From assembly GCA_038890875.1 (NCBI GenBank), contig JAWAFA010000002.1:35356-99355 (forward strand): a DNA stretch of 64,000 nt. The letters run 5' to 3'. The notes under the pieces are model-generated. The model worked only from the letters and a program-made list of their open reading frames with translations. It was not told the DNA's origin and searched no databases. The stretch is from Candidatus Pacearchaeota archaeon (GTDB lineage: Archaea > Nanobdellota > Nanobdellia > Pacearchaeales > JAPDKA01). Made by a program: the position numbers and the translations under genes. Positions 6,315 through 59,520 of this stretch are shown piece after piece; the stretch's first letter is position 1, and each line of letters begins with the position of its first letter.

Positions 6315-9300
6315 AAAAAGCAATCTCTGAATCAGATGTTGAAGAATTTGTTTTGTCTTTGCTAGAGAAATTAGGTTATGAAATAATCAGAGGGAATAAT
6401 GAGAATTACTTGCCAAATGGAAAATATGCGCTAAGGCAAAGATATGAAGATGTTGTGCTTGTTGATAGATTGCGACAGGCTTTGAGAAGGATTAATCCAC
6501 AGGTATCAGAAGAAGCTAGAGAACAAGTAATAAAAGAAATTCTAAGAATAGGAAGCCAAAAGTTGCTTGTTGACAATGAAACCTTTCACAGAATGCTTAC
6601 TGATGGAGTCAGCATTCCTATAAAAAAAGAAGGTGAAGAAAGACACGTTTTGATTAATCTATTTGATTTTAAAGATATAAAAAATAATGATTTTCTCGCT
6701 GTTAATCAATTTACAGTAATAGAAAAAGATGAAAGAAGACTTGATATTGTTTTATTTGTTAATGGTTTGCCTCTAGTTGTTATAGAGTTAAAAAATCCTA
6801 CTGATGAAAATGCAACAATCTGGACAGCATATAATCAACTTCAAACATATAAAGAGCAGATACCATCTTTGTTCAAGTATAATGAAATTTTAGTTATTAG
6901 TGATGGAATAGAAGCAAGAGCAGGTACAATTACATCTGAGCCAGAGAGGTTTATGCAGTGGAAAACAATAGATGGAGAAAAACCAAAAAAGGGGTTAACA
7001 GAGATAGAAATTTTAATTAGAGGTATGTTTGGCAAAAACAGACTTCTGGATATTGTAAGAAACTTTATTGTTTTTGAAAAAGATAAAGAAACAAAAAAGA
7101 AATTAGCGGCATATCACCAATATTGGGCGGCAAATAAAGCAATAGAATCAACATTGCAAGCAAGAAAAACAAACAAAAAAGCAGGCATTGTATGGCATAC
7201 TCAAGGTTCTGGAAAATCTTTAACAATGATTTTTTATGCTGGAAAAATAATCCGAGAGATGGATAATCCAACAATAGTTGTTATTACAGATAGAAATGAT
7301 CTTGATGACCAGTTATTTGGAACTTTTAGCAAGTGTCAAGATATATTAAGGCAAAAACCAGTTAAGGCAAACACAAGAAAAGAATTAATGGAATTGCTTA
7401 AAGTTTCTTCTGGTGGAGTTGTCTTTACAACAATTCAAAAATTCTTTCCTGAAGAGGATAGAGAAAAATACCCTACACTATCAGAGCGAGATAATATTAT
7501 TGTAATAGCGGATGAAGCTCATAGAAGTCAATATGGATTTCCTGCAAAAATACTAAAGAAAGAAGATAAAGCATTAATTACTTATGGCTATGCAAAGTAC
7601 TTAAGAGATGCTTTACCAAATGCTTCATTTATTGGTTTCACAGGAACTCCAATAGAAAAAGCAGATAGATCAACACCAGCAGTATTTGGAAAATATGTTG
7701 ATGTTTATGATATAGAACAAGCAGTGAATGACGGCGCTACTGTAAGAATATTTTATGAAAGTAGATTGGCAAAGTTAGATTTAAAACCAGAAGAAAGACC
7801 AAAGATTGATCCTGAATTTGAGGAGGTAACAGAAGGCGAAGAAGTAGAACATAAAGAAAAATTAAAGAGCAAATGGGCAAGACTCGAAAAGATTGCAGGC
7901 GCTCCTAAAAGAATAAGAAGGATTGCAAAAGACATCGTGAATCATTTTGAGCAAAGGCTTTCTGTTCTTGATGGAAAAGGAATGATTGTATGCATGTCAA
8001 GAAGAATATGTATTGACCTTTATAATGAGATAATAAAACTAAGGCCAGAGTGGCATAATCAAGATGATGATAAAGGCTTTATCAAAGTCGTAATAACAGG
8101 CTCTGCTTCTGACCCGAAAGAATGGCAGCAATATATAAGAAACAAAGCCAGAAGAAAGAAAATAGGTGATAATTTTAAAGACCCAAAACATGAAACTAAA
8201 TTGCTTATTGTAAGAGATATGTTCTTGACAGGTTTTGATGTACCATCTTTACATACAATGTATCTTGATAAACCAATGAAGGGCCATACTTTAATGCAAG
8301 CTATAGCGAGAGTAAACAGAGTTTATCCTGGAAAGGAAGGTGGTTTAGTTGTTGACTATATGGGTGTTGGTGCTGAATTGAAAAAAGCTTTGATGGAGTA
8401 CACAGAAAGCGGGGGTAAAGGGAAACCAACACTAGATCAAGAAGAGGCAGTAAGATTAATGTTAGAAAAATATGAAATTGTAAAAGATATGTTTTATGGT
8501 TTTAATTACAAGAAATTTTTTGAGCTTTCGCCAAAAGAAAGGTTAGCTTTCATACCAAATGCAATAGAGCATATACTAAAAGAGCCTGGTAAAAAAGAAA
8601 GATTTGAAAAAGAAGCCACTGCTCTTGTTAAAGCATTTTCTTTAGCAGTTCCTCATGAAAAGGCAATGAAAATTAAGGAAGAAGTTGGTTTCTTCCAGGC
8701 ATTAAAATCAACAATATCAAAAACAATTGAAACTAAAAAAGACACAAAGGAACAGTACGAAACAGCGATCAAACAGATTATCTCAAAAGCAGTAATCTCT
8801 GATAGAATTATAGATATATTTGAAGCTGCTGGAATTCAAAAGCCGGAACTTTCTATTCTATCAGAGGGCTTTTTGGCCGAAGTAAAAGAGATGCCTCAGA
8901 AAAACTTAGCATTTGAAGCGCTAAAAAAATTATTGAACGATGAGATTAAAATAATTTCAAAAAGAAACCTTGTTCAAGGCAAATCTTTTATGGAGATGCT
9001 AGACAGAACAATAAAAAAATATACGAATAGAGCTGTAGAGGCCGCGCAAGTTATAGAAGAATTAATAGAGTTAGCAAGAAAAGTTAGAGAAGAAAAAAAC
9101 AGAGGAAAAGAGTTAGGAATGAGTGAAGATGAACTTGCATTTTATGATGCACTTGAAGTTAATGATAGCGCGGTTAAAATACTTGGTGATGAGACTCTAC
9201 GAAAAATAGCACTCGAACTAACACAAATGATAAGAAAAAGTGTTACAATAGACTGGACACAAAGAGAAAGTGTTCAAGCAGAGTTGCGCCTCAAAGTAAA

Positions 9301-14791: not shown

Positions 14792-15508
14792 TTACTTATT
14801 TTTAACTTTTTTTGTCGGTCTTATCAATGACATTATTTCATCATCACTTATTGAACAACCATACGCTTTAGCCCCGTACATCAGAGCATCTAATCCTTCT
14901 CTTTCTTCTTCAAAACCAGTTTTCTTTTTTTCATAACCAATAAACAAAATCTCACTAGAGCGAATTATTTTTATCCTTTTACTCTTGAAAAATGTGGCAA
15001 GTTCATTGTCTATATAAATTTTTTTATGGACTTTATTTGCAATAAGTTCAGCAACGCTTGCCGGATTTTCCAGAATCATCCTTGTTGTCCTTTCATCAAT
15101 AACTAAAGCTTTGTTATTTATTTTTAATAATTCATAGACAGCAATACAGCTTGCCTCTCCTCGATGAACTAAATTTATTTTTTCATGGTCAGTATAAACT
15201 ATTGAATTAATTTTTTCCAGTATCTCTTGAGTTTTTGTAATTATTTCCTGACCACCAACAACTTCTAATACTCTACCTTCAACCAGTTTTTTTATCATAA
15301 GTGCCCGTAACTCATATTTTTTTATTTCCATAGGCACATTTACACATTCATTATAGACATCTTGTGTAATTAAAAACTTACCATCAAAACCAACTTTAAG
15401 TTCCTTTAATAGATCATTCATTCCTAACATATTTAAAGTTATTAGACTTGATGAATCAAAGATTAATGCCTTATTTGCTTTTATTTCATCAATTTTTAAT
15501 ATCCTCAT
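14792..15508 (-). CDS. PIN-domain protein (COG2405/DUF3368-like) with a C-terminal extension
   Basis: Acidic and PIN-type motifs: LIFDSSSLI, YNEC, RGEASCIAVYELL, LVIDERTTR. The preferred ATG at 15508 lies 1 nt after the upstream stop. The track ORF extends to 15547. Confidence 0.5.
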   Translation of the reverse strand: MRILKIDEIKANKALIFDSSSLITLNMLGMNDLLKELKVGFDGKFLITQDVYNECVNVPMEIKKYELRALMIKKLVEGRVLEVVGGQEIITKTQEILEKINSIVYTDHEKINLVHRGEASCIAVYELLKINNKALVIDERTTRMILENPASVAELIANKVHKKIYIDNELATFFKSKRIKIIRSSEILFIGYEKKKTGFEEEREGLDALMYGAKAYGCSISDDEIMSLIRPTKKVKNK

Positions 15509-15509
15509 T

Positions 15510-16139
15510 TTATTCAAAAAGTTCATGCACAATTTTGATCCTTTCAAAGATCGGCTTGGTGATTGTTAAAGGTACATTTGCTATACCTGTTTGGCCAATA
15601 TATTCTGCTAATTCCCATTGCGTTATTCCTAAAATCTCAGCAGTCTTACCAAAACTTATACCATGTTCATATATTCGCGAACCTTTGTTTATTCTTGCTT
15701 TTCTAAAAACTTGAATAACATAATCTCGTAGATGACCACTTAATTTATTAACACTTGTAGTTATATTATTTAAACTAGTTCTAAACATTTCTAAATTTTT
15801 TTCTTTCAAAGCCTGGTAACATATTTCGACATCTTTTTTAATTGTCTCATAAAATTCTGGCCATTCTTTATATTCTCTATATTTTGGTCTTTCTATTATT
15901 TTTGCTAAAGCATAGATAATGACGGCAATGCTTATGCTCTCAGTATCTTGATAAATACTTGCACTGTGAATAGTAAGATTACTTAACTCTTTAATTTTAA
16001 GTGCATTCCCTTCTTTAAGGTAAATATTTAAATTTTCGAAGATTTTTAGAACATGTTCATGCTCTCTTAATTCTCTTAACCCTCCTAATTCTTTATTTTC
16101 TTGGCTTTGATTATTTGTCATAGAAAAAAATAAAAACAA
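15510..16139 (-). CDS. UPF0175-like HTH protein (antitoxin-like C-terminus) with a long N-terminal helical domain
   Basis: C-terminal GISFGKTAEILGITQWELAEYIGQTGI matches the UPF0175/COG2886 pattern. Sits immediately upstream of the PIN gene. An alternative start exists at 16121. Confidence 0.45.
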   Translation of the reverse strand: MFLFFSMTNNQSQENKELGGLRELREHEHVLKIFENLNIYLKEGNALKIKELSNLTIHSASIYQDTESISIAVIIYALAKIIERPKYREYKEWPEFYETIKKDVEICYQALKEKNLEMFRTSLNNITTSVNKLSGHLRDYVIQVFRKARINKGSRIYEHGISFGKTAEILGITQWELAEYIGQTGIANVPLTITKPIFERIKIVHELFE

Positions 16140-48100: not shown

Positions 48101-48493
48101 ATGAATGAGCATAAATTAAATAAAGTTGAAGGGTATAAAGAGGTAATCCCTTATGTATATGTTGGAATGAACAAATGTTGTCGACCAACTTTTGCAATGA
48201 TTAATGGAGAAAAAGTTGATATAAATTTTAATGGACCACTAAATACAGATCTGCTAGGTAATGGAGCAAATTTTATTGCTTCACTTATTAAACAAAAAAT
48301 AAAGGTTTGTATAAATTATGAAAACCAGAATACAAAAGCAATATTTTTTCTTATTGCTTATTTTATTATGAAAGGAAAAAGCATCGATGATTCAATAAGC
48401 CTTATAAAGAAAAAAATAAATATATTTAATATAAATAATCAAGAAAAAAAATTGCTTCAGGATTTCCAAAAACAATTTAAAAATGAAAACTAG
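48101..48493 (+). CDS. Hypothetical protein with a degenerate dual-specificity-phosphatase-like layout
   Basis: VYVGMN...IKVCINYENQNTKAIFFLIAYFIMKGKSIDDSISLIKKK resembles the DSP P-loop region, but the HCxxGxxR catalytic signature is absent. Confidence 0.3.
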   Translation: MNEHKLNKVEGYKEVIPYVYVGMNKCCRPTFAMINGEKVDINFNGPLNTDLLGNGANFIASLIKQKIKVCINYENQNTKAIFFLIAYFIMKGKSIDDSISLIKKKINIFNINNQEKKLLQDFQKQFKNEN

Positions 48494-49400
48494 ATTGCCT
48501 TACTCTGATGTTGAACTTATGAAAAAGATTCCTTGCAGCAAAGAAGAACTTCTAATGTTCAAAAAAGTAAGAGAAGAAACATTGAAAGAAGCAGCAGCAT
48601 ATAAAAAAAGATATTTTTCTAAGCAAATAAAAATTTTAGGCATAAGTGGAAGTATGCGAGCTAAAGATGATTGCCCAAAAGAAGATTCAACCACAGAATT
48701 TCTTTTGAAAGCAGCATTAAAGAAAGCTAATCAGCTTGGTGCAAGGACTGAACTTTTAAAATTAAGAGAGTACGAAATAAGGCCATGTAAAGGATGTTAT
48801 AGTACAACCAACACTCAATGCCATTTTCCTTGTAGTTGCTATCCTTTCGGCGAGTATGGAGATGACATGACAAATAAGTTATATTGGAAAGTTTTGGATG
48901 CTGATGGGATTATTTGGGCCACACCAGTGCATAATTTCAAAATTTCTTCATTAATGGCCCTCTTTCTTGATAGGTTAATAAGCATGGATGGAAGTTTAAG
49001 ACCGGCCAATCTAAATGATATAAAAAATAAAGAGCTAAACATAAAGCATACAAAGTTTATAGAATTAACAGCCGATGATAAAATTTTTGGATCTGGTTTT
49101 TTGAGAAGATTTATTGGAAAAGTTGCTGGGATAATTGTAAGTGGGCATGAAGTAGGAGCATCACTAACTATTTCCTCTCTTTTCATGACACTAAATCATT
49201 TTGGAATGATTTTTCCTCCATTTAGTAATATATATGCGATAAATACTGTTTGTGAAGGTACTTATCATGACTCGAAAAAACTAAAAAGTGAATGTTACTT
49301 AAAAGAAGCAGAGAGACTAGCTGAGAATATTATTACAACAATAAAAATTGTCAAGCAAAATCCAAGGTTATTTTGGAAGTATGACCAAAAGAGTAACTAA
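48483..49400 (+). CDS. NADPH-dependent FMN reductase / iron-sulfur flavoprotein-like protein
   Basis: ILGISGSMR flavodoxin-like start. Cys cluster CKGCYSTTNTQCHFPCSC. Confidence 0.65.
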   Translation: MKTRLPYSDVELMKKIPCSKEELLMFKKVREETLKEAAAYKKRYFSKQIKILGISGSMRAKDDCPKEDSTTEFLLKAALKKANQLGARTELLKLREYEIRPCKGCYSTTNTQCHFPCSCYPFGEYGDDMTNKLYWKVLDADGIIWATPVHNFKISSLMALFLDRLISMDGSLRPANLNDIKNKELNIKHTKFIELTADDKIFGSGFLRRFIGKVAGIIVSGHEVGASLTISSLFMTLNHFGMIFPPFSNIYAINTVCEGTYHDSKKLKSECYLKEAERLAENIITTIKIVKQNPRLFWKYDQKSN

Positions 49401-49423: not shown

Positions 49424-49936
49424 ATGAAAAACCGAATTGTTGGTTTTATCATATTAGGAATCGCTGTTCTAATTGGGTATATAATATTATCATTCAATAG
49501 AGCGCTAACCAGTATAGTGAATGCTATATGTACTCATGGACCTTCTTGTCCGATGTCAGGAACAATCAAATTTCAAACAAATGTAAGCTTAGGAATAATG
49601 ATTTTTATTATTATTATTGCACTTTATCTAATTTTCTTTGGCGAAGAAGAGAAGGTAATAACAAAGACTAGAACAATTAGACCACGAATTGAACCAAGGA
49701 AAATTACAAAAGAACATTATCAAAAAATATTAAAAAGTTTAAGTGATGATGAAAGGGCTGTTTTAGAAAGAATAATTGAATCTGAAGGAGCTATATTTCA
49801 ATCAGATTTAGTTGATAAGGCTGGATTAAGTAAAGTTAAAATTACAAGAATTCTTGATAAATTAGAAGGGAGAGGGTTAGTTGAAAGGAGAAGAAGAGGA
49901 ATGACAAATGTTGTGATTCTTAAGCATGAAGCATAA
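49424..49936 (+). CDS. Membrane-tethered winged-helix transcriptional regulator (COG2512-like) with a Cys/His/Met loop
   Basis: Two TM helices flank ICTHGPSCPMSG. C-terminal wHTH: ERAVLERIIESEGAIFQSDLVDKAGLSKVKITRILDKLEGRGLVERRRRG. Confidence 0.65.
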   Translation: MKNRIVGFIILGIAVLIGYIILSFNRALTSIVNAICTHGPSCPMSGTIKFQTNVSLGIMIFIIIIALYLIFFGEEEKVITKTRTIRPRIEPRKITKEHYQKILKSLSDDERAVLERIIESEGAIFQSDLVDKAGLSKVKITRILDKLEGRGLVERRRRGMTNVVILKHEA

Positions 49937-49938
49937 AG

Positions 49939-50112
49939 CTAGTGGCAACAACTGGGGCCATGATTCTTTTTTTCATGCGTTTTTAATTGTTTTTTATATT
50001 CATTTAAACATTTCTGTGAGCAAAACCACTCTCCATACTTTTTAATTCCTCTGCCTTTTTCTTCTTTCATTCCACATATTGGATCTTTTTTCTTAAATAA
50101 ACTAAATACCAT
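49939..50112 (-). CDS. YHS/TRASH-domain metal-binding mini-protein (57 aa)
   Basis: MVFSLFKKKDPICGMKEEKGRGIKKYGEWFCSQKCLNEY...NHGPSCCH (DPxCGM...FCSxxC). Below the ORF-track cutoff. Confidence 0.7.
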   Translation of the reverse strand: MVFSLFKKKDPICGMKEEKGRGIKKYGEWFCSQKCLNEYKKQLKTHEKKNHGPSCCH

Positions 50113-50148: not shown

Positions 50149-50997
50149 TTATTTTTTTTCTAAAATCTTTAGCTCAATAATTACATCAAGGCCAGCAAAT
50201 TCTGGATTGCTGTCTAGCACAATAGACGTTTCATTTAAATTCACTACTTTTCCTTGAGTATTGCCTAAAATAATTATATTGTCAAGAGCAGGAGTTAACG
50301 TAAGATAGATGTAATCTTTATCTATTGAAATTGTCAAATTACCGGCAGGAATCTTGATTGTCTGTTCATATGCATTAAGCTTTGCCTTTATTTTATCCGA
50401 AGTAACTTCAGTTATGTTCATGAACATTATTTCATTTAAAGGGATTATTTTTCCTGGTTGGGCATCTATGATCAGCTCAACATCCGTGCCATTTATTTTC
50501 AACACTTTATACTGTAGAGGATCTCCAGGAACGTTATATGTTTTGTTTACAACTGGCGTTTCACCAAAAACTTGAATAACATTTTGTAAAGGAAGATTAA
50601 AGATTCTATCCATTTCTCTTTCTCTAATAATTTTTTCTGTTCGATTGATAATAAAAACCTTATTTAAATCATACTCACCGAAAGCATCCTTTGCTGCAAG
50701 CTTTAAATGTACTTCTTCGCCTTCACTCATGTTAATAATTTTATTATCAATAACAAGAGAGTTAAGACCTAAGTCACGAGAAACTTTTCCAATTACAGAA
50801 TCAAGCATTCCTGATTTAAGAACAGTTTCATTTTCAAGTTTTATTACATATTGTAGCTTTACGCTTGATATTGCCTTTGTCGTCAATTCATTCTTTATTC
50901 CCGAAATAATAAAGAGGTTGGCAATAAAAATTATTATTATCACTGATGCTAAGAGCAAAGTAATTTTGTTAAAATCAAATTTTTTCATTTTTTGCAA
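50149..50997 (-). CDS. Membrane-anchored protein with an FKBP-type PPIase-like segment
   Basis: N-terminal TM helix. GEEVHLKLAAKDAFGEYDLNKV resembles the FKBP/SlyD core. Weak call. Confidence 0.4.
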   Translation of the reverse strand: MQKMKKFDFNKITLLLASVIIIIFIANLFIISGIKNELTTKAISSVKLQYVIKLENETVLKSGMLDSVIGKVSRDLGLNSLVIDNKIINMSEGEEVHLKLAAKDAFGEYDLNKVFIINRTEKIIREREMDRIFNLPLQNVIQVFGETPVVNKTYNVPGDPLQYKVLKINGTDVELIIDAQPGKIIPLNEIMFMNITEVTSDKIKAKLNAYEQTIKIPAGNLTISIDKDYIYLTLTPALDNIIILGNTQGKVVNLNETSIVLDSNPEFAGLDVIIELKILEKK

Positions 50998-51050: not shown

Positions 51051-51257
51051 TCAACAACCTCCTACCATCCCTGTTGATCGTGCACTTGAAGTAGTGCTTG
51101 GACTTGAAATTGAACTCTGTGTCGATTGTGTTAAACTTGTTTTTATGCTAAAACCAGACAACTTTGCTTTTATACTGCCAAGTTCAATTGTCTGCACGAT
51201 GGAAAAGACTAAAAGCACTCCAAGTACTATTGCTAAGATTATTTCAATTTTTACCAT
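51051..51257 (-). CDS. Small membrane-anchored protein with a Ser/Thr-rich linker, ending in MVGGC
   Basis: MVKIEIILAIVLGVLLVFSIVQTIELGSIKAKLSG...STTSSARSTGMVGGC*. The ATG at 51257 lies 1 nt after the upstream stop. Confidence 0.55.
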   Translation of the reverse strand: MVKIEIILAIVLGVLLVFSIVQTIELGSIKAKLSGFSIKTSLTQSTQSSISSPSTTSSARSTGMVGGC

Positions 51258-51258
51258 T

Positions 51259-51948
51259 TTAACAACCACCCACCATTTCTCCACCAGAAGTGGTTCCTCT
51301 TTCTATTCCTCTATATTTATTTGAAGCAAGATTAATATAATTAAGCTCTATGCCTTTTTCTTTTAAAACAGCCGCCTTTTGCTCATGAATGCCTGGAAAG
51401 AATAATACTTTCCATTTTCCTAATTCCTCTAATATTTGTTCATTTGACATCTCTGGATGATATGTCAATAAATATTTTGCTAATCCGCGCATTGCATAGC
51501 TATGAGCGCAACCACAAGCCGGGCTTCCATCTTTGAAAATAATTGCTGCCGCACCACAGCAATATTCACATGATATTTGTAAGCCTATTTCTATATATCT
51601 CTGCAATTTTTCACCACTTAAAGTTATTTTATTATCAAAAGACCCTAATTTAGCGATTGTCTCATCAGCAAGTCTTGGATTGTTGGGAGATACATCATCA
51701 TATCTTATCCCTAACTCAGAGCCATAAACTGGTGGAACTCCTGTCGGGATAATATCAGAAATAGTAAAACCTGTTATTTGAGCTGAGTTCGAACTTATTT
51801 TTTTCGCGATCGAAGAAATTTGAAATTGATTATAAACTAACAAAATCGCGATAATAAACATAAGGCCTATTAGGGTATACAACAAATTATTTTTGCTTTT
51901 TCCTTTTTCAACATCATAACTTGTATCACTTATTTTACTCATATTCAT
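51259..51948 (-). CDS. Membrane-anchored Cys-rich (CxxCCG / ACGCAH) protein, also ending in MVGGC
   Basis: TM anchor plus QFQISSIAKKISS. Cys block ISCEYCCGAAAIIFKDGSPACGCAHSY. C-terminus TTSGGEMVGGC*. Confidence 0.6.
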   Translation of the reverse strand: MNMSKISDTSYDVEKGKSKNNLLYTLIGLMFIIAILLVYNQFQISSIAKKISSNSAQITGFTISDIIPTGVPPVYGSELGIRYDDVSPNNPRLADETIAKLGSFDNKITLSGEKLQRYIEIGLQISCEYCCGAAAIIFKDGSPACGCAHSYAMRGLAKYLLTYHPEMSNEQILEELGKWKVLFFPGIHEQKAAVLKEKGIELNYINLASNKYRGIERGTTSGGEMVGGC

Positions 51949-52014: not shown

Positions 52015-52071
52015 TTTGAAACACTTTAAAAACTTATCTATGAAACTAGTTTCAAACAAAGCTTTAAAAAC
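52015..52071. promoter_or_regulatory. Divergent control region: perfect 14-bp palindrome flanked by repeated TATA-like decamers
   Basis: TGAAACTAGTTTCA at 52041..52054, an extra half-site TTTGAAAC at 52015..52022, and CTTTAAAAAC at 52024..52033 and 52062..52071. Lies between divergently transcribed genes. Confidence 0.3.
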
Positions 52072-52131: not shown

Positions 52132-52554
52132 ATGAGTGAGGATTCGATGAAGATAATTTCAGTGCTTATTATAGCAGGATTAGTGGCGGCAGGATTTTTG
52201 ATATTTGTGCTTCCAGCAATAACTGGGAATATAGTTAGAGATGGAAGATTACCACCATATGCTCAAAGTGGAAAAATAAGAGAGGCTTATCAATTTGCCG
52301 CTACAAATCCTTCTGACCTAGAAGGAATTCCCTGTTCATGCGGATGTATGCAGCATTTACATGATGGTAGGATACATAGGAGGGGCCTACTCGATTGCTT
52401 TATGAGAGAAGATGGTAACTTTGAGAGACATGGTTCACAATGTGAGATGTGTATAAACGCTGTGCTTGATGTTAAAGAATGGAAAGAACAGGGATTTAGT
52501 TATGATGAAATCAAAGCAAAGATAATTAAAAAATATGGTGGTGGATTTTATTAA
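52132..52554 (+). CDS. PCYCGC-motif family-like membrane-anchored protein
   Basis: TM anchor, then GIPCSCGCMQHLHDGRIHRRGLLDCF and CEMC. Confidence 0.6.
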   Translation: MSEDSMKIISVLIIAGLVAAGFLIFVLPAITGNIVRDGRLPPYAQSGKIREAYQFAATNPSDLEGIPCSCGCMQHLHDGRIHRRGLLDCFMREDGNFERHGSQCEMCINAVLDVKEWKEQGFSYDEIKAKIIKKYGGGFY

Positions 52555-52555
52555 A

Positions 52556-53044
52556 ATGAAAAATGCAAAGAAAACATTAATTGTTTTAGCTATTTTAATA
52601 TTGATAAGCTCTTTTGTCTTTGCCCATACGCAGGAAGAAATTGTTGAGGCCAAAAAGATTATTGATGCTAATATAAGTTGCAGTAATCTTTCAGAAGAGC
52701 AGTTAAATATTTTAGGAGATTATTTTATGGAGCAAATGCATCCTGGAGAGGTGCATGAATTAATGCATGAAATGATGGGCGGTGAAAATTCCTCTTTGGT
52801 GAAACAGATGCATATTAACATGGCAAGAATGATGTATTGTAATGGAGGGTATGAGGAAAGAATAACGGAAGGAAGAATGATGGGAGCTTGTATGATGGGA
52901 AGAATGATGGATATGGATAATATTTATAATTATAAACAAAATTCTTATCAAAGTATATTTTATATAACCATGGCCTTACTTGCAATTTCGTTAGTTTTGC
53001 TTATAGCAATAATAATGTTAGTTATTATTAAAGCAAAAAAATAA
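52556..53044 (+). CDS. Secreted Met/His-rich protein with a C-terminal TM anchor (probable Cu-binding)
   Basis: MEQMHPGEVHELMHEMMGG...MHINMARMMYC...GRMMGACMMGRMMDMD. The ATG at 52556 lies 1 nt after the upstream stop. Confidence 0.55.
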   Translation: MKNAKKTLIVLAILILISSFVFAHTQEEIVEAKKIIDANISCSNLSEEQLNILGDYFMEQMHPGEVHELMHEMMGGENSSLVKQMHINMARMMYCNGGYEERITEGRMMGACMMGRMMDMDNIYNYKQNSYQSIFYITMALLAISLVLLIAIIMLVIIKAKK

Positions 53045-53051
53045 AGAAAAA

Positions 53052-53561
53052 ATGAAAAAAAATTTAATCTTCCAAACTTCAATCTTGCTTGCAATTTTGT
53101 TTCCCTTAATTATTCCACTTGCCTCCGCTCACTGCCCATTATGTACTGCAGGAGCCGCTGTTGCTGCAGGAGCAGCCACATGGTTAGGAGTTAATATTAT
53201 GGTAATAGGTTTGTTTATTGGAGCATTCGCAACTTCACTTGGGTTTTGGGTATCTAATCTATTAAGAAAAAAGTTCGTAAGTTTCCCTCTGCAAACATTA
53301 TTAATTGTAACAGTTTCATTTTTGCTAACAGTACTTCCGATTATTCCTGTGGTTGAAGGTAGTGATGTTAATTTTTCAGTTAGTAGAGTTAATAACTTCT
53401 TGATTGGGAGCGTGATTGGTTTAGTAATCGTTGCATTATCCCCTCTTTTAAGTAGCGGGATGACAAAAATAAGGAAAGGAAAATTCTTCCCATTCCAAGG
53501 TATAATAATTACAATATTATTATTAATTGTAGCAGGAGTAATCATTCAATTTTTAACTTAA
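53052..53561 (+). CDS. Polytopic membrane protein with an N-terminal CPLC motif
   Basis: Signal-like start, then SAHCPLCTAGAAVAAGAA, then about four TM helices. Confidence 0.5.
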   Translation: MKKNLIFQTSILLAILFPLIIPLASAHCPLCTAGAAVAAGAATWLGVNIMVIGLFIGAFATSLGFWVSNLLRKKFVSFPLQTLLIVTVSFLLTVLPIIPVVEGSDVNFSVSRVNNFLIGSVIGLVIVALSPLLSSGMTKIRKGKFFPFQGIIITILLLIVAGVIIQFLT

Positions 53562-53562
53562 A

Positions 53563-54024
53563 ATGAATCTCTTTTATATAACTCTAGCAATAACCTTGCT
53601 TTTCTTTGTGCTTTTAATAGTGAAAGCAGTGATAAATAAATTCAAAAAGTTTGATTTTTGTGTTATCTGCGCTTCTGTTAGCTTAACCTGGCTTTTCTTA
53701 CTTGTTCTTTTTTATTTAGGGTTATATGGGAATATCGTATTAATTGCCCTATTAATGGGTGGGAGTGTTGTTGGACTTTTTTATTTTATTGAAAGAAAGA
53801 TAGCCAAAACAAAAAATAAAGAGCTTACATTGTTCAGGCTTCCCTTTTTATTAACATTGATATTTATTGCCTATACTCTTTTATTTTATTCATATTTTGA
53901 TATAAGAGTAGTTTATTTACTTGCCTTACTGTGGCTTCTATTCTTTTTTATTTTTTTATATAGAAAAAATCCTAAATTAAAAAAAATAATAAATAAAATC
54001 ATTGAATGTTGCAAAAGATGGTAA
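53563..54024 (+). CDS. Polytopic membrane protein with an intramembrane CVIC motif and a C-terminal CC
   Basis: Four or five TM helices, FDFCVICASVSL, ...IECCKRW. A DsbB/VKOR-like role is only a guess. Confidence 0.45.
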   Translation: MNLFYITLAITLLFFVLLIVKAVINKFKKFDFCVICASVSLTWLFLLVLFYLGLYGNIVLIALLMGGSVVGLFYFIERKIAKTKNKELTLFRLPFLLTLIFIAYTLLFYSYFDIRVVYLLALLWLLFFFIFLYRKNPKLKKIINKIIECCKRW

Positions 54025-54492: not shown

Positions 54493-54762
54493 ATGAAAAA
54501 AGAAAAAATAAAAGAAGAAAAGGAAATAAAAGAAAATAAAAACAATAAAGCTAAGTATTTTATAATTAGTTTTTTAATTTTTTTATTAGTTTTATCAATC
54601 ATTGGTTTTATAATATTGAGCAAAACAAGTACAACGATGACGATAACGCAGAGTTACATTGACTCAGATAAATGTAAGCCTCCCGCAGGGTATAATGAAG
54701 AAGAGTGGCGAGAACATATGAGCCATCATCCAAACATATATAAGGAATGTTTAAATAATTAA
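54493..54762 (+). CDS. Membrane-anchored small protein with a Cys...HH...Cys ectodomain
   Basis: Lys/Glu-rich N-terminus, one TM helix, then DKCKPPAGYNEEEWREHMSHHPNIYKEC. Confidence 0.45.
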   Translation: MKKEKIKEEKEIKENKNNKAKYFIISFLIFLLVLSIIGFIILSKTSTTMTITQSYIDSDKCKPPAGYNEEEWREHMSHHPNIYKECLNN

Positions 54763-55020: not shown

Positions 55021-55629
55021 ATGGTAAATAAAAAAATAAAAATTTTGATTGTAGTAATTGTTCTAATCCTAATAGCAATATATTTTATAGCAAAATCTAA
55101 GACGTTAAAGATAGATCTTAACGAGCCTACAATTGGTTATGATAATGCTAGCATAACAATTACTGAATTTAGTGATTTTGAATGCCCTTTTTGTGCTAGG
55201 TATAGCAGGGAGGTTTTTCCGATAATCAATGAAGAGTACATAAAAACAGGCAAAGTCAAATATATTTTTAGAAATTTTCCTTTAAGCATTCATAAAAACT
55301 CTAAAGAAGCTGCTGAAGCTTCAGAATGTGCAAATGAGCAAGGAAAGTTTTGGGAATATCATGAGATATTATTTGAGAGACAAAGTGAATGGAGTAATAA
55401 TTTAAAAAAGTTGAATGATTATGCGAGTGATCTTGGGCTCGATATTGAAAAATTTAATGCATGTCTGGCTTCTAAAAAATATAGGTGGGAGGTTAAGGAA
55501 GATTTTGCTGATGGATTGAAGTTAGGGGTAAGTGGAACACCAACATTTTTTATAAATAATATTAAGATTGTTGGCGTGCAAAATTTTAACATTTTTAAGC
55601 AAGTCATAGAGCGAGAATTAAATAAATAA
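55021..55629 (+). CDS. DsbA-like thioredoxin-fold thiol:disulfide oxidoreductase, membrane-anchored
   Basis: TM anchor, FSDFECPFCARY (CPFC active site), and GVSGTPTFFIN cis-Pro loop. Confidence 0.85.
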   Translation: MVNKKIKILIVVIVLILIAIYFIAKSKTLKIDLNEPTIGYDNASITITEFSDFECPFCARYSREVFPIINEEYIKTGKVKYIFRNFPLSIHKNSKEAAEASECANEQGKFWEYHEILFERQSEWSNNLKKLNDYASDLGLDIEKFNACLASKKYRWEVKEDFADGLKLGVSGTPTFFINNIKIVGVQNFNIFKQVIERELNK

Positions 55630-55644
55630 AATAATAAAGAAAAT

Positions 55645-56253
55645 ATGGCAACAACAAAAGAAAAGTATAATGCTATAGCAAGGTTTTATGACATTTATGA
55701 AAAAATTCCAGAAAAGCTTTTGTTTAGCAAATGGCGCACGCGATATTTAAGCAAATTGAAAGGTAAAATTCTTGAAGTTGGTATTGGAACAGGCAAGAGC
55801 CTTGATTATTACAATGATAAAGCAAGAGTAATCGGTATTGATTTTTCTGAAGAAATGCTAAAAAAAGCAAAACAAAAATTAAAAAAACTTGGAAAAAAGA
55901 ATATTATTTTAAAACAAGGCGACGTTGAAAATCTAAAGTTTAAAAGTAATAGCTTTGACTATGTTGTAACATTTTTTGTTTTTTGTTCTGTGCCAGATCC
56001 AGTAAAGGGGTTGAAAGAAATAAAGCGAGTTTTAAAACCGCGAGGGAAGGCTATTTTTATAGAGCATGTGCTTAGTAAAAATAAATTTATTGCTTTTTTC
56101 CAGCATTTATTTAATCCTTTGAGCAGAGCATTATCAGGAGTAAATATAAATCGAAATACCAAATTGAATATCCTTAAGGCAGGACTAAGAATAGAAAAAG
56201 AAAAAAATCTTGCTCTCGGAGATATTTTTAAATTATTTGTTGCAAAAAAATAG
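55645..56253 (+). CDS. Class I SAM-dependent methyltransferase
   Basis: ILEVGIGTGKSL motif I, then DYVVTFFVF and LKPRGKAIFIEH. Confidence 0.85.
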   Translation: MATTKEKYNAIARFYDIYEKIPEKLLFSKWRTRYLSKLKGKILEVGIGTGKSLDYYNDKARVIGIDFSEEMLKKAKQKLKKLGKKNIILKQGDVENLKFKSNSFDYVVTFFVFCSVPDPVKGLKEIKRVLKPRGKAIFIEHVLSKNKFIAFFQHLFNPLSRALSGVNINRNTKLNILKAGLRIEKEKNLALGDIFKLFVAKK

Positions 56254-56412: not shown

Positions 56413-57018
56413 GTGAAAATGAAAGAACCTAAAATGAAAGAATTTTGTATATATCATCTCAAAAATTTAGATAAAAACAGAGAAAAGATAAAAAGTAAGC
56501 TAGAGCTAGGCCACCCAATTCATACTTTAATGTCCGAGCATGAAATAATTTTAAGTTTCTTAGATAAAATTAAAAAAATTAATTCAAAAATTCAAAAGAT
56601 GAAGAGCTATAGAAAGGATAAGAGTTTTGAAATTTTAAAAAATACTGCAGAGCATTTAATAGAAGCTGAATCTCATCACGAAAGAGAAGAAAAAGTTTTA
56701 TTTCCAGAACTAGAGAAAAGAGGTATTTTTGGTCCACCAGAGGTAATGAAAGAGGAACATAGAATCTTAAGAAAAGCTAAGAAGGAACTTTCAGGTCTAG
56801 CTAAAATGCCGATCAAAAATTTTTCTCAATTTAAAGAAAGATTAAAAGAGCTGGAGAATTTGATTACTCCAACATTAAAAGATCATATTGCCAAAGAAGA
56901 CAATATCCTTTATCCAATGTCTTTGCAAGTGATTAAAAACGAAAAAGAATGGGCAATGATCAAGAAAAAATGCGATAAGATAGGATATTGTTGTTTTACA
57001 CCAAACAAAAAATGTTAA
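56413..57018 (+). CDS. Hemerythrin-like (HHE cation-binding) domain protein with a Cys-rich tail
   Basis: HPIHTLMSEHEIIL, ESHHEREEKVLFPELE, MKEEHR, DHIAKEDNILYP. Tail CDKIGYCCFTPNKKC. The start is GTG at 56413 or ATG at 56419. Confidence 0.65.
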   Translation: MKMKEPKMKEFCIYHLKNLDKNREKIKSKLELGHPIHTLMSEHEIILSFLDKIKKINSKIQKMKSYRKDKSFEILKNTAEHLIEAESHHEREEKVLFPELEKRGIFGPPEVMKEEHRILRKAKKELSGLAKMPIKNFSQFKERLKELENLITPTLKDHIAKEDNILYPMSLQVIKNEKEWAMIKKKCDKIGYCCFTPNKKC

Positions 57019-57102: not shown

Positions 57103-59520
57103 ATGGGGAAAATGAAAAAAATAATAATTCCAATTTCAGGAATGCATTGTGCTTCTTGTGCCCAAAAAATAGAATCAACTATTCAGCGATTAAAAGGGGT
57201 TGTTAAGGCGAGTGTTAACTTCGCTACAGAAAAAGCGATTGTTGAATTTGATGAGGCTTTGATTAATGAAAATGAGATAAATAATGCTATTGAGCAACTT
57301 GGCTATAAAGTTATCAGCGAGAAAGAAGAAACAAGAGAGATTAGATTAAAGATAATTGGTATGGATAACCCACATTGTATTAACGAAGTTAGCAATGCTC
57401 TAAAGATAAGGGGAGTTATTTCTAAAGAGCTTTTGCAGAATGAAAAAGGAATTATAAAGTATAATCCTAAAATAATCGACGCAGAAAAAATAAAGAAAGT
57501 AATAAAAAATGCCGGATATGAGCCAATTGAAGAAGAGGAAGAGTTAGTTGATAGAGAAAAGGAAGTGCGAGAGAAGGAAATTAGAAGATTAAAAAATCTT
57601 TTTTTAATTTCGCTTATACTATCAATTCCTATTTTTATTCTTTCATATCCTCAATGGTTCAAAATAACGATTCCTTACGAGAATATTGTGCTCTTTATTC
57701 TTACAACTCCAGTTCAATTATTTGTAGGATATAGGTTTTACAAAGGGGCTTTTTTTGCGCTAAAAGCAAAAACAGCCACAATGGACACTCTTATTGTTAT
57801 TGGTACATCAGCTGCTTATATTTATAGTATACTTGCGACATTCACACCTTATTTTGGCAATTATACTTATTTTGAAGTTTCTGCAATAATAATAACATTT
57901 ATTATTTTAGGAAAATGGCTTGAAGCTGTAACAAAAGGGAAGGCATCAGAGGCTATTAAAAAATTAATAGGTTTACAGCCAAAAAATGCAATTGTTATAA
58001 GAGAAGGGAAAGAAATACAAGTTCCAATAAATAATGTTGTTGTTGGTGATATTGTTGTCGTAAAACCAGGACAAAAAATACCCGTCGATGGTGTAGTTAT
58101 AGATGGCCATTCCTCAGTTGATGAATCGATGATTACAGGAGAAAGTATACCTGTAGAAAAAAAGAAGGGGGATATAGTAATAGGAGGAACAATCAATAAA
58201 CATGGCTCATTCAAGTTCAAAGCAACAAAAGTTGGGAAGGACACTGTCCTTAATCAAATAATAAGGTTAGTTGAAGAAGCTCAAGGAAGCAAAGCACCAA
58301 TACAAAAATTAGCAGATAAAGTTAGTGGTTATTTTGTTCCGACAGTTATTATTATTGCAGTTTTAGCTTTCATAATCTGGTATTTTGTTGTAGGCCAAAG
58401 CTTTGTTTTTTCACTTAGCATCTTCATAGCAGTCTTGATTATAGCTTGTCCTTGTGCACTTGGCCTTGCAACGCCAACAGCGATAATGGTAGGAACTGGC
58501 AGAGTAGCTCAGCTAGGAATATTGATTAAAGAAGCTGAAGCATTAGAAAAAGCCCACAAATTAACAACTATTGTCTTTGATAAAACTGGAACCTTAACAG
58601 AAGGAAAACCTATTGTTACTGATATTCTCGCTATAGATAAAGTTGATAAAAAAGAAATTTTAAAATATGCTGCAACTGCCGAGAAAAGCTCCGAGCACCC
58701 CCTTGCTGATGCTATAATTAATAAAGCAAAAGAAGAAAAAATTAAAATTCCTGATGCTAATTTTTTTGAAGCAGTTCCCGGACAGGGGATTATTGCAAAA
58801 TATGAAAGAAAAAAGATTTTTTTTGGTAATAGGGCTTTAATGAAAAAGTGGGGGATAAAATTTGAAACCATTGAAGAAACAATTAGAAGTTTAGAAAATG
58901 AGGGAAAAACAGTCATGATCTTAGCGATTAACAAAAAAATTGTTGGCCTAATTGCTGTTGCTGACACCCTAAAAAAATTTTCTAAAGAAGCCGTCCAAAA
59001 ATTGAAAAAAATGGGTAAAGAAGTTATCATGATTACCGGCGATAATAAAAGAACGGCCAATGCTATAGCAAGACAGCTGGGCATTGATTATGTTCTTGCT
59101 GAAGTTTTTCCAGAGGATAAAGAAAAAAAGATTAGCCAATTACAAAAGAAAGGTAAAATAGTGGCAATGGTTGGTGATGGCATAAATGATGCTCCTGCAC
59201 TTGCGAAAGCTGATATTGGCATTGCTATTGGGGCTGGAACAGATGTCGCACTGGAAACAGCGCAAATAGTTTTGATTAAAAATGATTTAAGAGATGTAAT
59301 AACTGCAATCGATTTAAGTAGTTATACTATTAAAAAAATTAAACAAAATCTTTTTTGGGCATTTTTTTATAATTCTGCAGGCATACCTATAGCCGCAGGC
59401 ATTTTATATCCCTTCACAGGATTTTTACTTAATCCAATTATTGCCGGAATGGCTATGGCATTTAGCTCTGTTTCTGTTGTTTCAAATTCTCTACTGATGA
59501 GAAGATATAACCCTAAATAA
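57103..59520 (+). CDS. copA: Copper-translocating P1B-type ATPase
   Basis: HMA domain GMHCASCA, a second degenerate HMA ([10 protein letters not shown]), TGES, CPC ([11 protein letters not shown]), [15 protein letters not shown]. Confidence 0.95.

Follow-up and report, generated by a model that had tools for sequence, protein, structure and literature searches.

Two adjacent genes on the minus strand of a contig from a Candidatus Pacearchaeota archaeon code for membrane-anchored proteins of 229 and 68 amino acids (aa), hereafter the long and the short protein, that end in the same pentapeptide, MVGGC, with cysteine as the very last residue. They lie within a stretch of 64,000 nucleotides (GenBank assembly GCA_038890875.1, contig JAWAFA010000002.1, positions 35,356 to 99,355), which we call the window, and positions given without another label are counted from its first letter. 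The pentapeptide is conserved in nearly all close relatives of both proteins, which are encoded side by side in an operon. The interpretation that we favour, although we would give it somewhat less than an even chance, is that the tail acts as an extracytoplasmic swinging arm, whose terminal thiolate would carry Cu(I) to a Cys site and to partner proteins.

Two open reading frames with one C-terminus

A preliminary description of the window had reported two open reading frames (ORFs) one nucleotide apart, a transmembrane (TM) helix at the start of both products, a Cys-rich domain in the long one only and the common MVGGC end. The observation itself has been confirmed, and its interpretation, in which the tail could be a metal ligand, a signal for processing or attachment or a substrate of thiol-redox proteins, is partly supported. 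A single base, 51258, separates the stop codon of the long ORF from the ATG of the short one at 51257. The long ORF terminates in ...GGEMVGGC (codons ATG GTG GGT GGT TGT TAA) and the short one in ...STGMVGGC with TGA as the stop, and these two C-termini are the only matches to [MLIV][VIL]GGC in a six-frame translation of the window. An alternative in-frame GTG upstream of the short-ORF ATG would extend the product to 77 aa, but the ATG is the more plausible start.

Both proteins begin with a short basic segment followed by one hydrophobic helix, after which Gln-containing amphipathic segments are found (NQFQISSIAKKI in the long protein and VQTIELGSIKAKL in the short one). Beyond them, the long protein carries the Cys-rich stretch SCEYCCG...ACGCAHS, whereas in the short protein a Ser/Thr-rich linker alone leads to the tail.

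Conservation of the tail and of the Cys-rich domain

The long-protein family comprises at least 2042 clusters at 90% identity (matches at E≤1e-3), none of which carries a Pfam domain, and the long protein itself is matched by no family model of Pfam or NCBIfam. The family occurs in DPANN archaea, its named homologues coming from metagenome-assembled genomes of Nano-, Pace-, Woese- and Aenigmarchaeota, and further members come from one bacterium of the candidate phyla radiation (CPR), a member of Magasanikbacteria, and from Desulfobacterales. Among the 120 closest homologues, 117 end in MVGGC and the remaining three in LVGGC, MVGEC and MIGGC. More distant relatives, grouped in 319 clusters at 50% identity, were obtained by a profile search of 1.84 billion cluster representatives. 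In the best 150 of these clusters, the tail is MVGGC in 71, QVGGC in 27, MVG[ADS]C in 9 and a rarer variant, often preceded by 'LPx', in the rest; Met is replaced by Trp in 3. These distant proteins have diverged totally after a conserved WK.LFFP segment, even in the last 40 residues before the tail, and a related tail is nevertheless kept. Alignment of 226 full-length members shows 100% conservation of C127, C130, C131, G141, C145, C147, H149, G155, P185, G227 and C229; G227 and C229 of the tail are, consequently, as invariant as the five cysteines and H149 of the domain.

The genomic setting was studied in 80 loci that contain the long gene, drawn from GTDB species genomes; the locus counts given below are lower bounds, as a good number of the contigs are short, and the loci are related to one another by phylogeny. 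All 77 long ORFs of the related loci end in MVGGC. Over the 1.07 Mb that these loci cover, 182 of 21,782 stop-to-stop ORFs have this end, nearly all of them inside the operon, while the estimated chance expectation for one given pentapeptide is well below one. At the nucleotide level, 187 tails are encoded by 117 distinct 18-mers, the V, G, G and C positions draw on all their synonymous codons, each of the three stop codons occurs, and a stop directly follows the Cys in each of the 187. Such free synonymous variation indicates that selection acts on the peptide and not on the DNA or on a Shine-Dalgarno or other ribosome-binding element; a DNA-level origin of the tail (Shine-Dalgarno sequence, repeat or recent duplication) is thereby ruled out.

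Metagenome contigs were also scanned, without family bias, for MVGGC followed by TAA. The ORFs of realistic length were almost all either of the long type (25) or small proteins composed of a TM helix and the tail (28, with about six more in cut or extended form); the other matches were tiny chance ORFs, short ORFs lacking the family features and one unrelated ORF of 136 aa (L096). In this sample, the MVGGC tail is essentially exclusive to the system described here. Covariation between the M/Q state of the tail and the columns of the domain was uninformative, its signal being dominated by phylogeny. Literature searches found no paper describing the family or the motif (the matches to 'MVGGC' were irrelevant), and those for 'PCYCGC' and 'DUF1573', families that appear among the neighbours discussed below, returned catalogue mentions only.

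Small tail proteins and separable modules

In 79 of the 80 loci, the long gene is directly followed on the same strand by one or two small ORFs that code for an anchor, a low-complexity linker and MVGGC. All 105 of these small ORFs have the MVGGC end, and their linkers are unconserved. Lack of conservation in orthologues, named in the preliminary description as fatal to its claim, does not apply to the tail. A word-indexed homologue search with the short protein of the window returned no match except itself, and its relatives were recovered via synteny. Four classes can be distinguished: (a) an anchor with an S/A/T linker, to which the short protein of the window belongs; (b) an anchor with the motif 'GWTENEKMNYEMHGTIPAR'; (c) an anchor with the motif 'ETYEEMMARMHPDQ'; and (d) an anchor with the end '...NLP[SG]MVGGC'. 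The juxtamembrane motif [NQ]xΦ[QE][IL]xxΦ is present in 44 of the 105 small homologues, versus 28 of 4956 background ORFs (0.6%). The anchor module that had been described as common to both proteins is, judging by this enrichment, real, although it is not universal.

The layout of anchor, optional cargo and tail proposed in the preliminary description is borne out by these relatives and can be extended, as Met/His modules and the Cys domain are also shuffled among long and small proteins. Met/His modules are found inside some long proteins too, before or after the domain (P0127, L079 and P0154). Additionally, one clade of domain paralogues lacks the tail, and in locus L046, for example, such a gene (15272-15970) lies two genes upstream of one that codes for a class-d tail-only protein. 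The domain and the Cys arm are, then, modules that can be separated but keep each other's company, either in cis or in trans.

More distant paralogues of the domain, with PCC...CNHG or PCC...CQCGHH, end in [GS]CGA, GSCSA or GSCNV (GSC[SN][AV]); they are encoded in L065 (4323-5513), L021 (11755-12948), L167 (569-1564), L017 (5736-6317) and L006 (10885-11496). A rhodanese domain is present in the larger ones, of which two out of three, in L065 and L021, start with a lipobox-like signal (LLFFGC and LLAFGC, respectively). Another recurrent element is a cytosolic N-terminal segment resembling a C2H2 zinc finger (e.g., CEECGKKF..HKQAKH), which occurs on several membrane-anchored extracytoplasmic proteins of these islands, such as a small tail protein of L141, a DsbA-like protein of L017 (7671-8396) and the product of L046 18379-19005.

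Predicted structure and topology

The AlphaFold2 (AF2) model of the long protein is confident (predicted local distance difference test score, pLDDT, 87.8). One long TM and juxtamembrane helix (residues 20-52) leads into a domain that is mainly helical, and the Cys motif is placed in a small beta-hairpin or knuckle region. The G/S linker and the tail have pLDDT values of 76-84, unlike those usual for a free coil. Neither Foldseek, run against solved structures, nor a sequence-profile search identified a relative of the long protein in the PDB.

Among 120 homologues, the mean number of Lys and Arg residues is 3.2 before the TM helix and 0.9 after it, with an excess on the N-terminal side in 93%. 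Moreover, bacterial members have a Sec signal or a lipoprotein signal in place of the TM anchor. By the positive-inside rule and these bacterial signals, the topology is predicted to be N-in/C-out, so that the domain would be extracytoplasmic. An iron-sulfur (CCG-like) reading of the Cys motif was considered and judged unlikely for an extracytoplasmic domain without a Tat signal.

The operon in related loci

The canonical gene order begins with a winged helix-turn-helix (wHTH) protein with two TM helices and a Cys-containing loop (61 of 78 loci), followed by the long gene, one or two small genes, CopG/DUF411, a multi-TM protein with an HCPLC motif (HCPLC-TM), a protein with a C-terminal vicinal Cys pair (CC-tail) and a membrane protein with such a pair in a TM helix (CC-TM). 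As the wHTH family adjoins the long gene in so many loci, it is a candidate membrane-bound sensor of the operon. CopG/DUF411 (PF04214, 2.7e-24) comes directly after the small genes in 35 loci. The HCPLC family is present in 51 loci and is fused to rhodanese in 3 of them; five other members of the same BLAST cluster have a rhodanese motif and lack HCPLC. Variable members of the operon include thioredoxin-fold proteins, DsbA, Met/His-rich proteins, DUF2933, DUF5676, YgaP-TM and CopA, the latter being encoded at most 7 kb from the long gene in 40 of 78 loci, and regulators of the ArsR and BlaI-CopY types are among the neighbours.

The Magasanikbacteria locus (L082) keeps nearly the whole cassette, namely, HCPLC-TM, a cytosolic CC-tail protein, CC-TM, the long protein, a small protein, a triple-thioredoxin protein and Lgt. 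In the long protein of this bacterium (P0251), the Cys domain is fused to a multi-TM CPVC module related to CC-TM; the small protein has 64 aa and ends in QMVGGC, and two DUF1573 genes are also found in the locus.

Some further features of these operons deserve mention. A second conserved C-terminal Cys tail, [ED]CC[KR]xW-COOH, is found both in a four-TM protein and in an unrelated cytosolic helical protein (fam5), which alternate at one position of the operon (e.g., L005 12258-12740 and L082 5522-6037), and 'DCC' occurs at the cytosolic N-terminus of many of the membrane proteins. Lgt, a prolipoprotein diacylglyceryl transferase of the bacterial type (PF01790, 2e-73), is encoded near the operon in four DPANN loci (L003, L060 7183-7926, L064 and L074) and directly after it in L082 (10418-11179). 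In the Desulfobacterales contig DRHF01000376.1 (L081), a DUF1573 gene (7075-8004) lies just upstream of a gene for a fusion of FKBP, Cys domain and MVGGC. An in-frame TGA (...EGC-TGA-SPEVVVG...) joins two called ORFs of this DUF1573 gene and probably codes for selenocysteine; DUF1573 has been listed among selenoprotein families (PMC9312934, PMC13188914).

Comparison with known systems

SoxY bears sulfur intermediates on a Cys within its C-terminal swinging arm, GGCGG, and the present tail resembles this arm in that it is extracytoplasmic, has a Gly-flanked Cys at the far C-terminus of a flexible arm and consists of a short, strictly conserved motif, which in SoxY serves for partner docking (PMC5336275, PMC6067878). 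By contrast, the tail described here, [MQ]VGGC, ends in the Cys itself, the arm is borne by a novel helical Cys-rich domain or by a bare tether, and the genomic context is copper and not sulfur oxidation. No sign of a SoxY fold or of homology to it was found: no Pfam family exceeds the threshold on the long protein, none is precomputed for its homologues, and the AF2 model is mostly alpha-helical. Similarly, SoxZ, SoxAX, SoxB and SoxCD are absent from the conserved neighbour families.

A second parallel is the mercury relay MerP-MerT-MerA, where MerA requires a vicinal Cys pair at its carboxy terminus and a flexible C-terminal Cys tail passes a soft metal to an internal Cys site (PMC3466566). 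Here, however, there is neither a flavoprotein reductase nor homology, the tail Cys is single and extracytoplasmic, and the pump is a Cu(I)-type CopA. A further likeness, of the MerT type, is that the relay includes membrane proteins with a vicinal CC in a TM helix.

Through its CxCC motif, CopG coordinates a Cys-bridged Cu4 cluster; it helps in anaerobic copper resistance and is genetically linked to copA (PMC7558416). Like the long protein, CopG/DUF411 is an extracytoplasmic Cys-cluster protein, and it is encoded beside the small tail genes; nevertheless, the long protein has CxxCC...CxCxH, is mainly helical and does not match PF04214, and CopG has no C-terminal Cys arm. The neighbouring PCYCGC (CYCXC) family shares with the long protein a CGC-x-H-like motif and a membrane-anchored extracytoplasmic layout. 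Homology between both was rejected, as the hhalign probability was 0.4-3.7% (3.7% over 7 columns); neither the long nor the short protein matches PF13798 or NF041379 at E<0.1, whereas the neighbour at 52132-52554 does. The CCG domain of the HdrB/DsrK type also has a five-Cys signature that includes 'CCG' and works with a partner carrying a C-terminal Cys arm, DsrC. The motif described here is far more compact (21 residues), has no PF02754 match and is unlikely to hold an Fe-S cluster.

Other classes of C-terminal signals were also compared. V-G-G-C formally fits the lipobox pattern, but it constitutes the last four residues of the protein and not the end of an N-terminal signal peptide. The layout of sortase, archaeosortase and rhombosortase sorting signals is not present, as nothing follows the Cys. 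The Gly-Gly C-termini of ubiquitin-like and ThiS/MoaD proteins belong to cytosolic beta-grasp folds, while the tails discussed here are attached to a helical domain or to no fold at all and are predicted to be extracytoplasmic. The MVGGC system would thus work in the manner of the Cys arms of SoxY, MerA and DsrC, but it belongs to none of these families. What appears to be new is the existence of putative carrier proteins cut down to a tether and a pentapeptide, as well as of a cassette common to DPANN archaea and at least one CPR bacterium.

Possible functions of the tail

From the conservation, architecture, predicted topology and gene context described above, we infer metal binding, docking and a direction of transfer as follows. 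[M/Q]VGGC-COOH would be the working end of a flexible extracytoplasmic arm, in which the terminal Cys thiolate, the Met or Gln side chain and the free carboxylate would bind a soft metal, with Cu(I) the likeliest. Docking of the arm would take place in the invariant CxxCC...CxCxH site of the long protein and probably also in operon partners, such as CopG/DUF411 and the HCPLC and CC membrane proteins. Domain and arm would be joined in cis in the long protein, and the small proteins would be bare membrane tethers providing additional arms in trans, some of them with Met/His motifs of the copper type. Acting together on the outer side of the membrane, they might take up Cu(I), buffer it and pass it on, and the operon to which they belong would serve in copper stress under the control of the membrane-anchored wHTH sensor.

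Cu(I) is favoured as the cargo by the linkage to CopA and CopG, the Met/His motifs, the vicinal CC motifs, the metal-type regulators and the precedent of MerA. For instance, small proteins carry MNYEMHG and YEEMMARMHP, and vicinal CC, which is typical of soft-metal binding rather than of redox chemistry, recurs on the cytosolic N-termini and the C-terminal tails of operon partners. Several points weigh against this interpretation. Cu(I) binding is deduced from the gene context, a lone Cys is a weak Cu(I) site, and the replacement of Met by Gln in 27 of the best 150 distant clusters (and by Trp in 3) implies that the arm can do without a Met thioether as ligand. Val and both Gly, invariant at the end of otherwise free linkers, go beyond the needs of ligand chemistry and suggest docking in a partner pocket instead of a mere pair of ligand atoms; in fact, this invariance and the Met-to-Gln exchange together point to pocket docking whichever the cargo is. 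CopA is not found nearby in the CPR (L082) and Desulfobacterales (L081) loci, and the operon abounds in proteins of the thioredoxin-fold, DsbA and rhodanese kinds and of Sec/Cys redox types (DUF1573 and CYCXC), with which a redox or sulfur role would be equally compatible.

Such a role would make the tail a covalent carrier, whose terminal Cys could bear sulfane sulfur (as a persulfide or polysulfide) or shuttle a mixed disulfide between the CxxC/CxC site in the domain of the long protein and partners of the thioredoxin-fold, DsbA or rhodanese kinds, by analogy with the SoxY or DsrC arms or with an Scs/DsbD-like repair of copper-induced disulfide damage. CxxC and CxC are classic redox motifs, MVGGC has the Gly-flanked C-terminal Cys of the SoxY arm, and the invariance of the whole pentapeptide suits docking into enzyme active sites. 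Additionally, rhodanese is fused to the HCPLC membrane protein and to the distant domain paralogues ending in [GS]CGA, and triple thioredoxin-fold proteins, DsbA and two known Cys/Sec redox-type families, DUF1573 and CYCXC, are close at hand. However, Sox, Dsr and Hdr enzymes are missing from all loci, Pfam reveals homology to neither SoxY nor DsrC, sulfur plays little part in the energy metabolism of DPANN and CPR organisms, no obvious source of electrons or sulfur was identified, and the Met/His-rich modules and the CopA/CopG linkage favour metal over sulfur; we regard the covalent carrier as the main rival of the Cu(I) arm, although the less likely of the two. Since the number of invariant Cys in the long protein is even (six), the terminal one might also be permanently bonded to a domain Cys, or the long and small tails to each other, stapling a hetero-oligomer held by the anchor helices, with no carrier role. 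The DsbA-like oxidase of the cluster and the juxtamembrane motif, which could drive association of long and small proteins, are compatible with this structural disulfide, but it leaves the invariance of M/Q, V, G and G and the long, flexible, unconserved linker unexplained, would be pointless in tail-only proteins, where there is nothing to stabilise, and fits poorly with many of the host habitats, which are anoxic groundwater, all of which makes it improbable.

An invariant terminal pentapeptide is also typical of signals recognised by enzymes, and the tail could mark the proteins for C-terminal processing or attachment, through S-lipidation of the terminal Cys or a cross-link to the envelope. 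VGGC formally fits the lipobox [LVI][ASTVI][GAS]C, Lgt is encoded near the operon in five loci (the four DPANN loci and L082), and a signal peptidase might cut at 'VQA|FQ', which follows the N-terminal hydrophobic segment, in which case a C-terminal anchor might be useful. Nonetheless, the chances of this explanation seem small, as lipoboxes are degenerate, never invariant, and located at the end of N-terminal signal peptides, most loci, the 64-kb window included, have no Lgt, peptidase or sortase-like gene nearby, the motif is not followed by the TM helix or basic tail of sortase, archaeosortase and rhombosortase signals, and the proteins are already membrane-anchored. Finally, the small ORF might not be a gene and its tail might be a chance match, a DNA-level repeat or a ribosome-binding element: the short protein had no homologue in the word-indexed search, and the tail codons of the long gene contain GGTGG just upstream of the short-gene ATG. 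This is scarcely credible, given that small TM-and-tail ORFs occur in 79 of 80 loci, that synonymous sites vary as freely as described (117 distinct 18-mers in 187 tails) and that the tail is equally conserved where no gene follows.

Returning to the Cu(I) arm, a broader proposal, which we hold tentatively and with confidence well short of even, is that MVGGC marks an unrecognised carrier system, where a C-terminal 'cargo hook' of five residues is borne by a novel Cys-rich ectodomain and by tether-only proteins, which, with the HCPLC and CC membrane proteins, would make up a relay of thiols across the membrane for Cu(I) or copper-sulfur species, encoded in a cassette exchanged between DPANN archaea and CPR bacteria. 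By analogy, it would be a minimalist counterpart, without a folded carrier, of the swinging arms of the SoxY and MerA types. DPANN archaea and CPR bacteria account for a large part of microbial diversity, and functions have been assigned to only a minority of their envelope proteins. The C-terminal [MQ]VGGC and the CxxCC...CxCxH domain provide a sharp, very widespread and easily spotted signature that binds six or more gene families without a model in Pfam (or in NCBIfam, where scanned) into one conserved operon, for which a role in extracellular copper/thiol handling is proposed. If the tail is indeed a Cu(I) or sulfur arm, a swinging-arm carrier would be reducible to a bare tethered pentapeptide, and the system would show how ultra-small, host-dependent cells without an outer membrane handle copper toxicity. 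In any case, the motif should help to annotate thousands of 'hypothetical proteins', among them ORFs so small that gene-calling programs may overlook them, and gives an entry to biochemistry with tail peptides, the soluble ectodomain and Cys-to-Ser variants.

Gene neighbourhood in the window

The cluster in the window is organised in two divergent units, one on the minus strand (long, short and FKBP-like genes) and one on the plus strand, from the PCYCGC gene through CopA (Table 1).

Table 1. Features of the two tail proteins and of the surrounding genes (window coordinates).
Feature	Coordinates	Strand	Description or basis
Long protein	51259..51948	-	229 aa: cytosolic N-tail, TM anchor, linker, novel alpha-helical Cys-rich domain, G/S linker, MVGGC tail
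Short protein	51051..51257	-	68 aa: TM anchor, juxtamembrane motif, Ser/Thr-rich linker, MVGGC tail
Long-protein TM anchor, L22-Y39	51832..51885	-	Predicted N-in/C-out
Short-protein TM anchor, I4-V21	51195-51248	-	
Long-protein juxtamembrane amphipathic segment NQFQISSIAKKISS (shared anchor motif)	51790..51831	-	Motif enriched in small and long members vs background ORFs
Cys/His motif, C127-x2-C130-C131-G ... C145-G-C147-x-H149	51499..51570	-	Invariant in 226 diverse members
Long-protein MVGGC tail, M225-C229	51262..51276	-	Stop codon 51259-51261
Short-protein MVGGC tail, M64-C68	51054..51068	-	
Membrane-anchored FKBP-like protein, third same-strand gene	50149..50997	-	Weak Pfam and PDB FKBP matches
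Two-TM wHTH (MarR/DUF7343-like) regulator, extracytoplasmic loop CTHGPSCPM	49424..49936	+	Pfam
Small YHS/TRASH-like Cys protein, end ...GPSCCH	49939..50112	-	Sub-threshold YHS match
PCYCGC/CYCXC-family protein, first gene of divergent operon	52132..52554	+	PF13798 2.9e-11; NF041379 6.6e-17
Met/His-rich membrane-anchored protein (MHPGEVHELMHEMMGG...)	52535..53044	+	Sequence; family in 23/78 loci
HCPLC multi-TM protein (signal peptide, then His-Cys-Pro-Leu-Cys)	53052..53561	+	Family in 51 loci
Four-TM protein, CxxC in TM helix, C-terminal ...ECCKRW (IIECCKRW)	53563..54024	+	No Pfam match; family in 18 loci
CC-TM membrane protein, GxG...SMxxCCxH in TM helix	54006..54491	+	Family in 51/78 loci; invariant C99, C100, H102
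DsbA-like thioredoxin-fold protein	55021..55629	+	PF13462 8e-38; PF01323 1e-17
CopA, P1B-type ATPase, HMA domain	57103..59520	+	Cu(I)-type motifs CPC, YN, MxxSS

The preliminary description had placed both genes in a cluster of copper and thiol genes, and this view holds, as a Cu(I)-type CopA, a YHS protein and a DsbA-like protein are encoded in the window and CopG/DUF411 in the 35 related loci mentioned above. CopA has the HMA domain, the CPC motif in a TM helix, YN, MxxSS and DKTGT that characterise P1B-1 Cu(I)-ATPases. The label VKOR-like, which presumably referred to the four-TM protein at 53563-54024, was rejected, as this protein has no Pfam match of any kind, VKOR included. DUF411 and Lgt are not encoded in the window. 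Pfam has no model for the long, short, HCPLC-TM and CC-TM proteins or for either CC-tail family, and NCBIfam has none among those scanned (the long, short, HCPLC-TM, CC-TM and four-TM proteins of the window). A homologue search with CC-TM returned no match except itself, and its single-sequence structure model was poor (predicted template modelling score, pTM, 0.34). The FKBP-like gene is relevant because a homologous FKBP module is fused to the Cys domain and MVGGC in Desulfobacterales; the BLASTP match between its product and the FKBP part of that fusion has an E-value of 1e-11.

The 183 bp that separate the divergently oriented long and PCYCGC genes contain a perfect 8-nt inverted repeat, TTTGAAAC-N26-GTTTCAAA (52015-52056), which could be an operator or could have arisen by chance in AT-rich DNA. 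Besides the Met/His-rich protein at 52535-53044 (+), where the motif YFMEQMHPGEVHELMHEMMGG is similar to the 'YEEMMARMHPDQ' module found in small tail proteins of class c, a second membrane-anchored protein of this kind is encoded at 54493-54762 (+), with C..EEWREHMSHHP..C. The predicted mature N-terminus of HCPLC-TM, ..ASA|HCPLC.., is kept in the 51 loci of its family, and the N-terminal His beside CxxC suggests a metal site. The same island also codes, at 48483-49400, 56413-57018 and 55645-56253 (all +), for an FMN-reductase-like protein with a Cys-rich insert, a hemerythrin-domain protein ending in ...GYCCFTPNKKC and a class I methyltransferase, and it is flanked by archaeal housekeeping genes (archaeosine TGT, GatD and Rad50).

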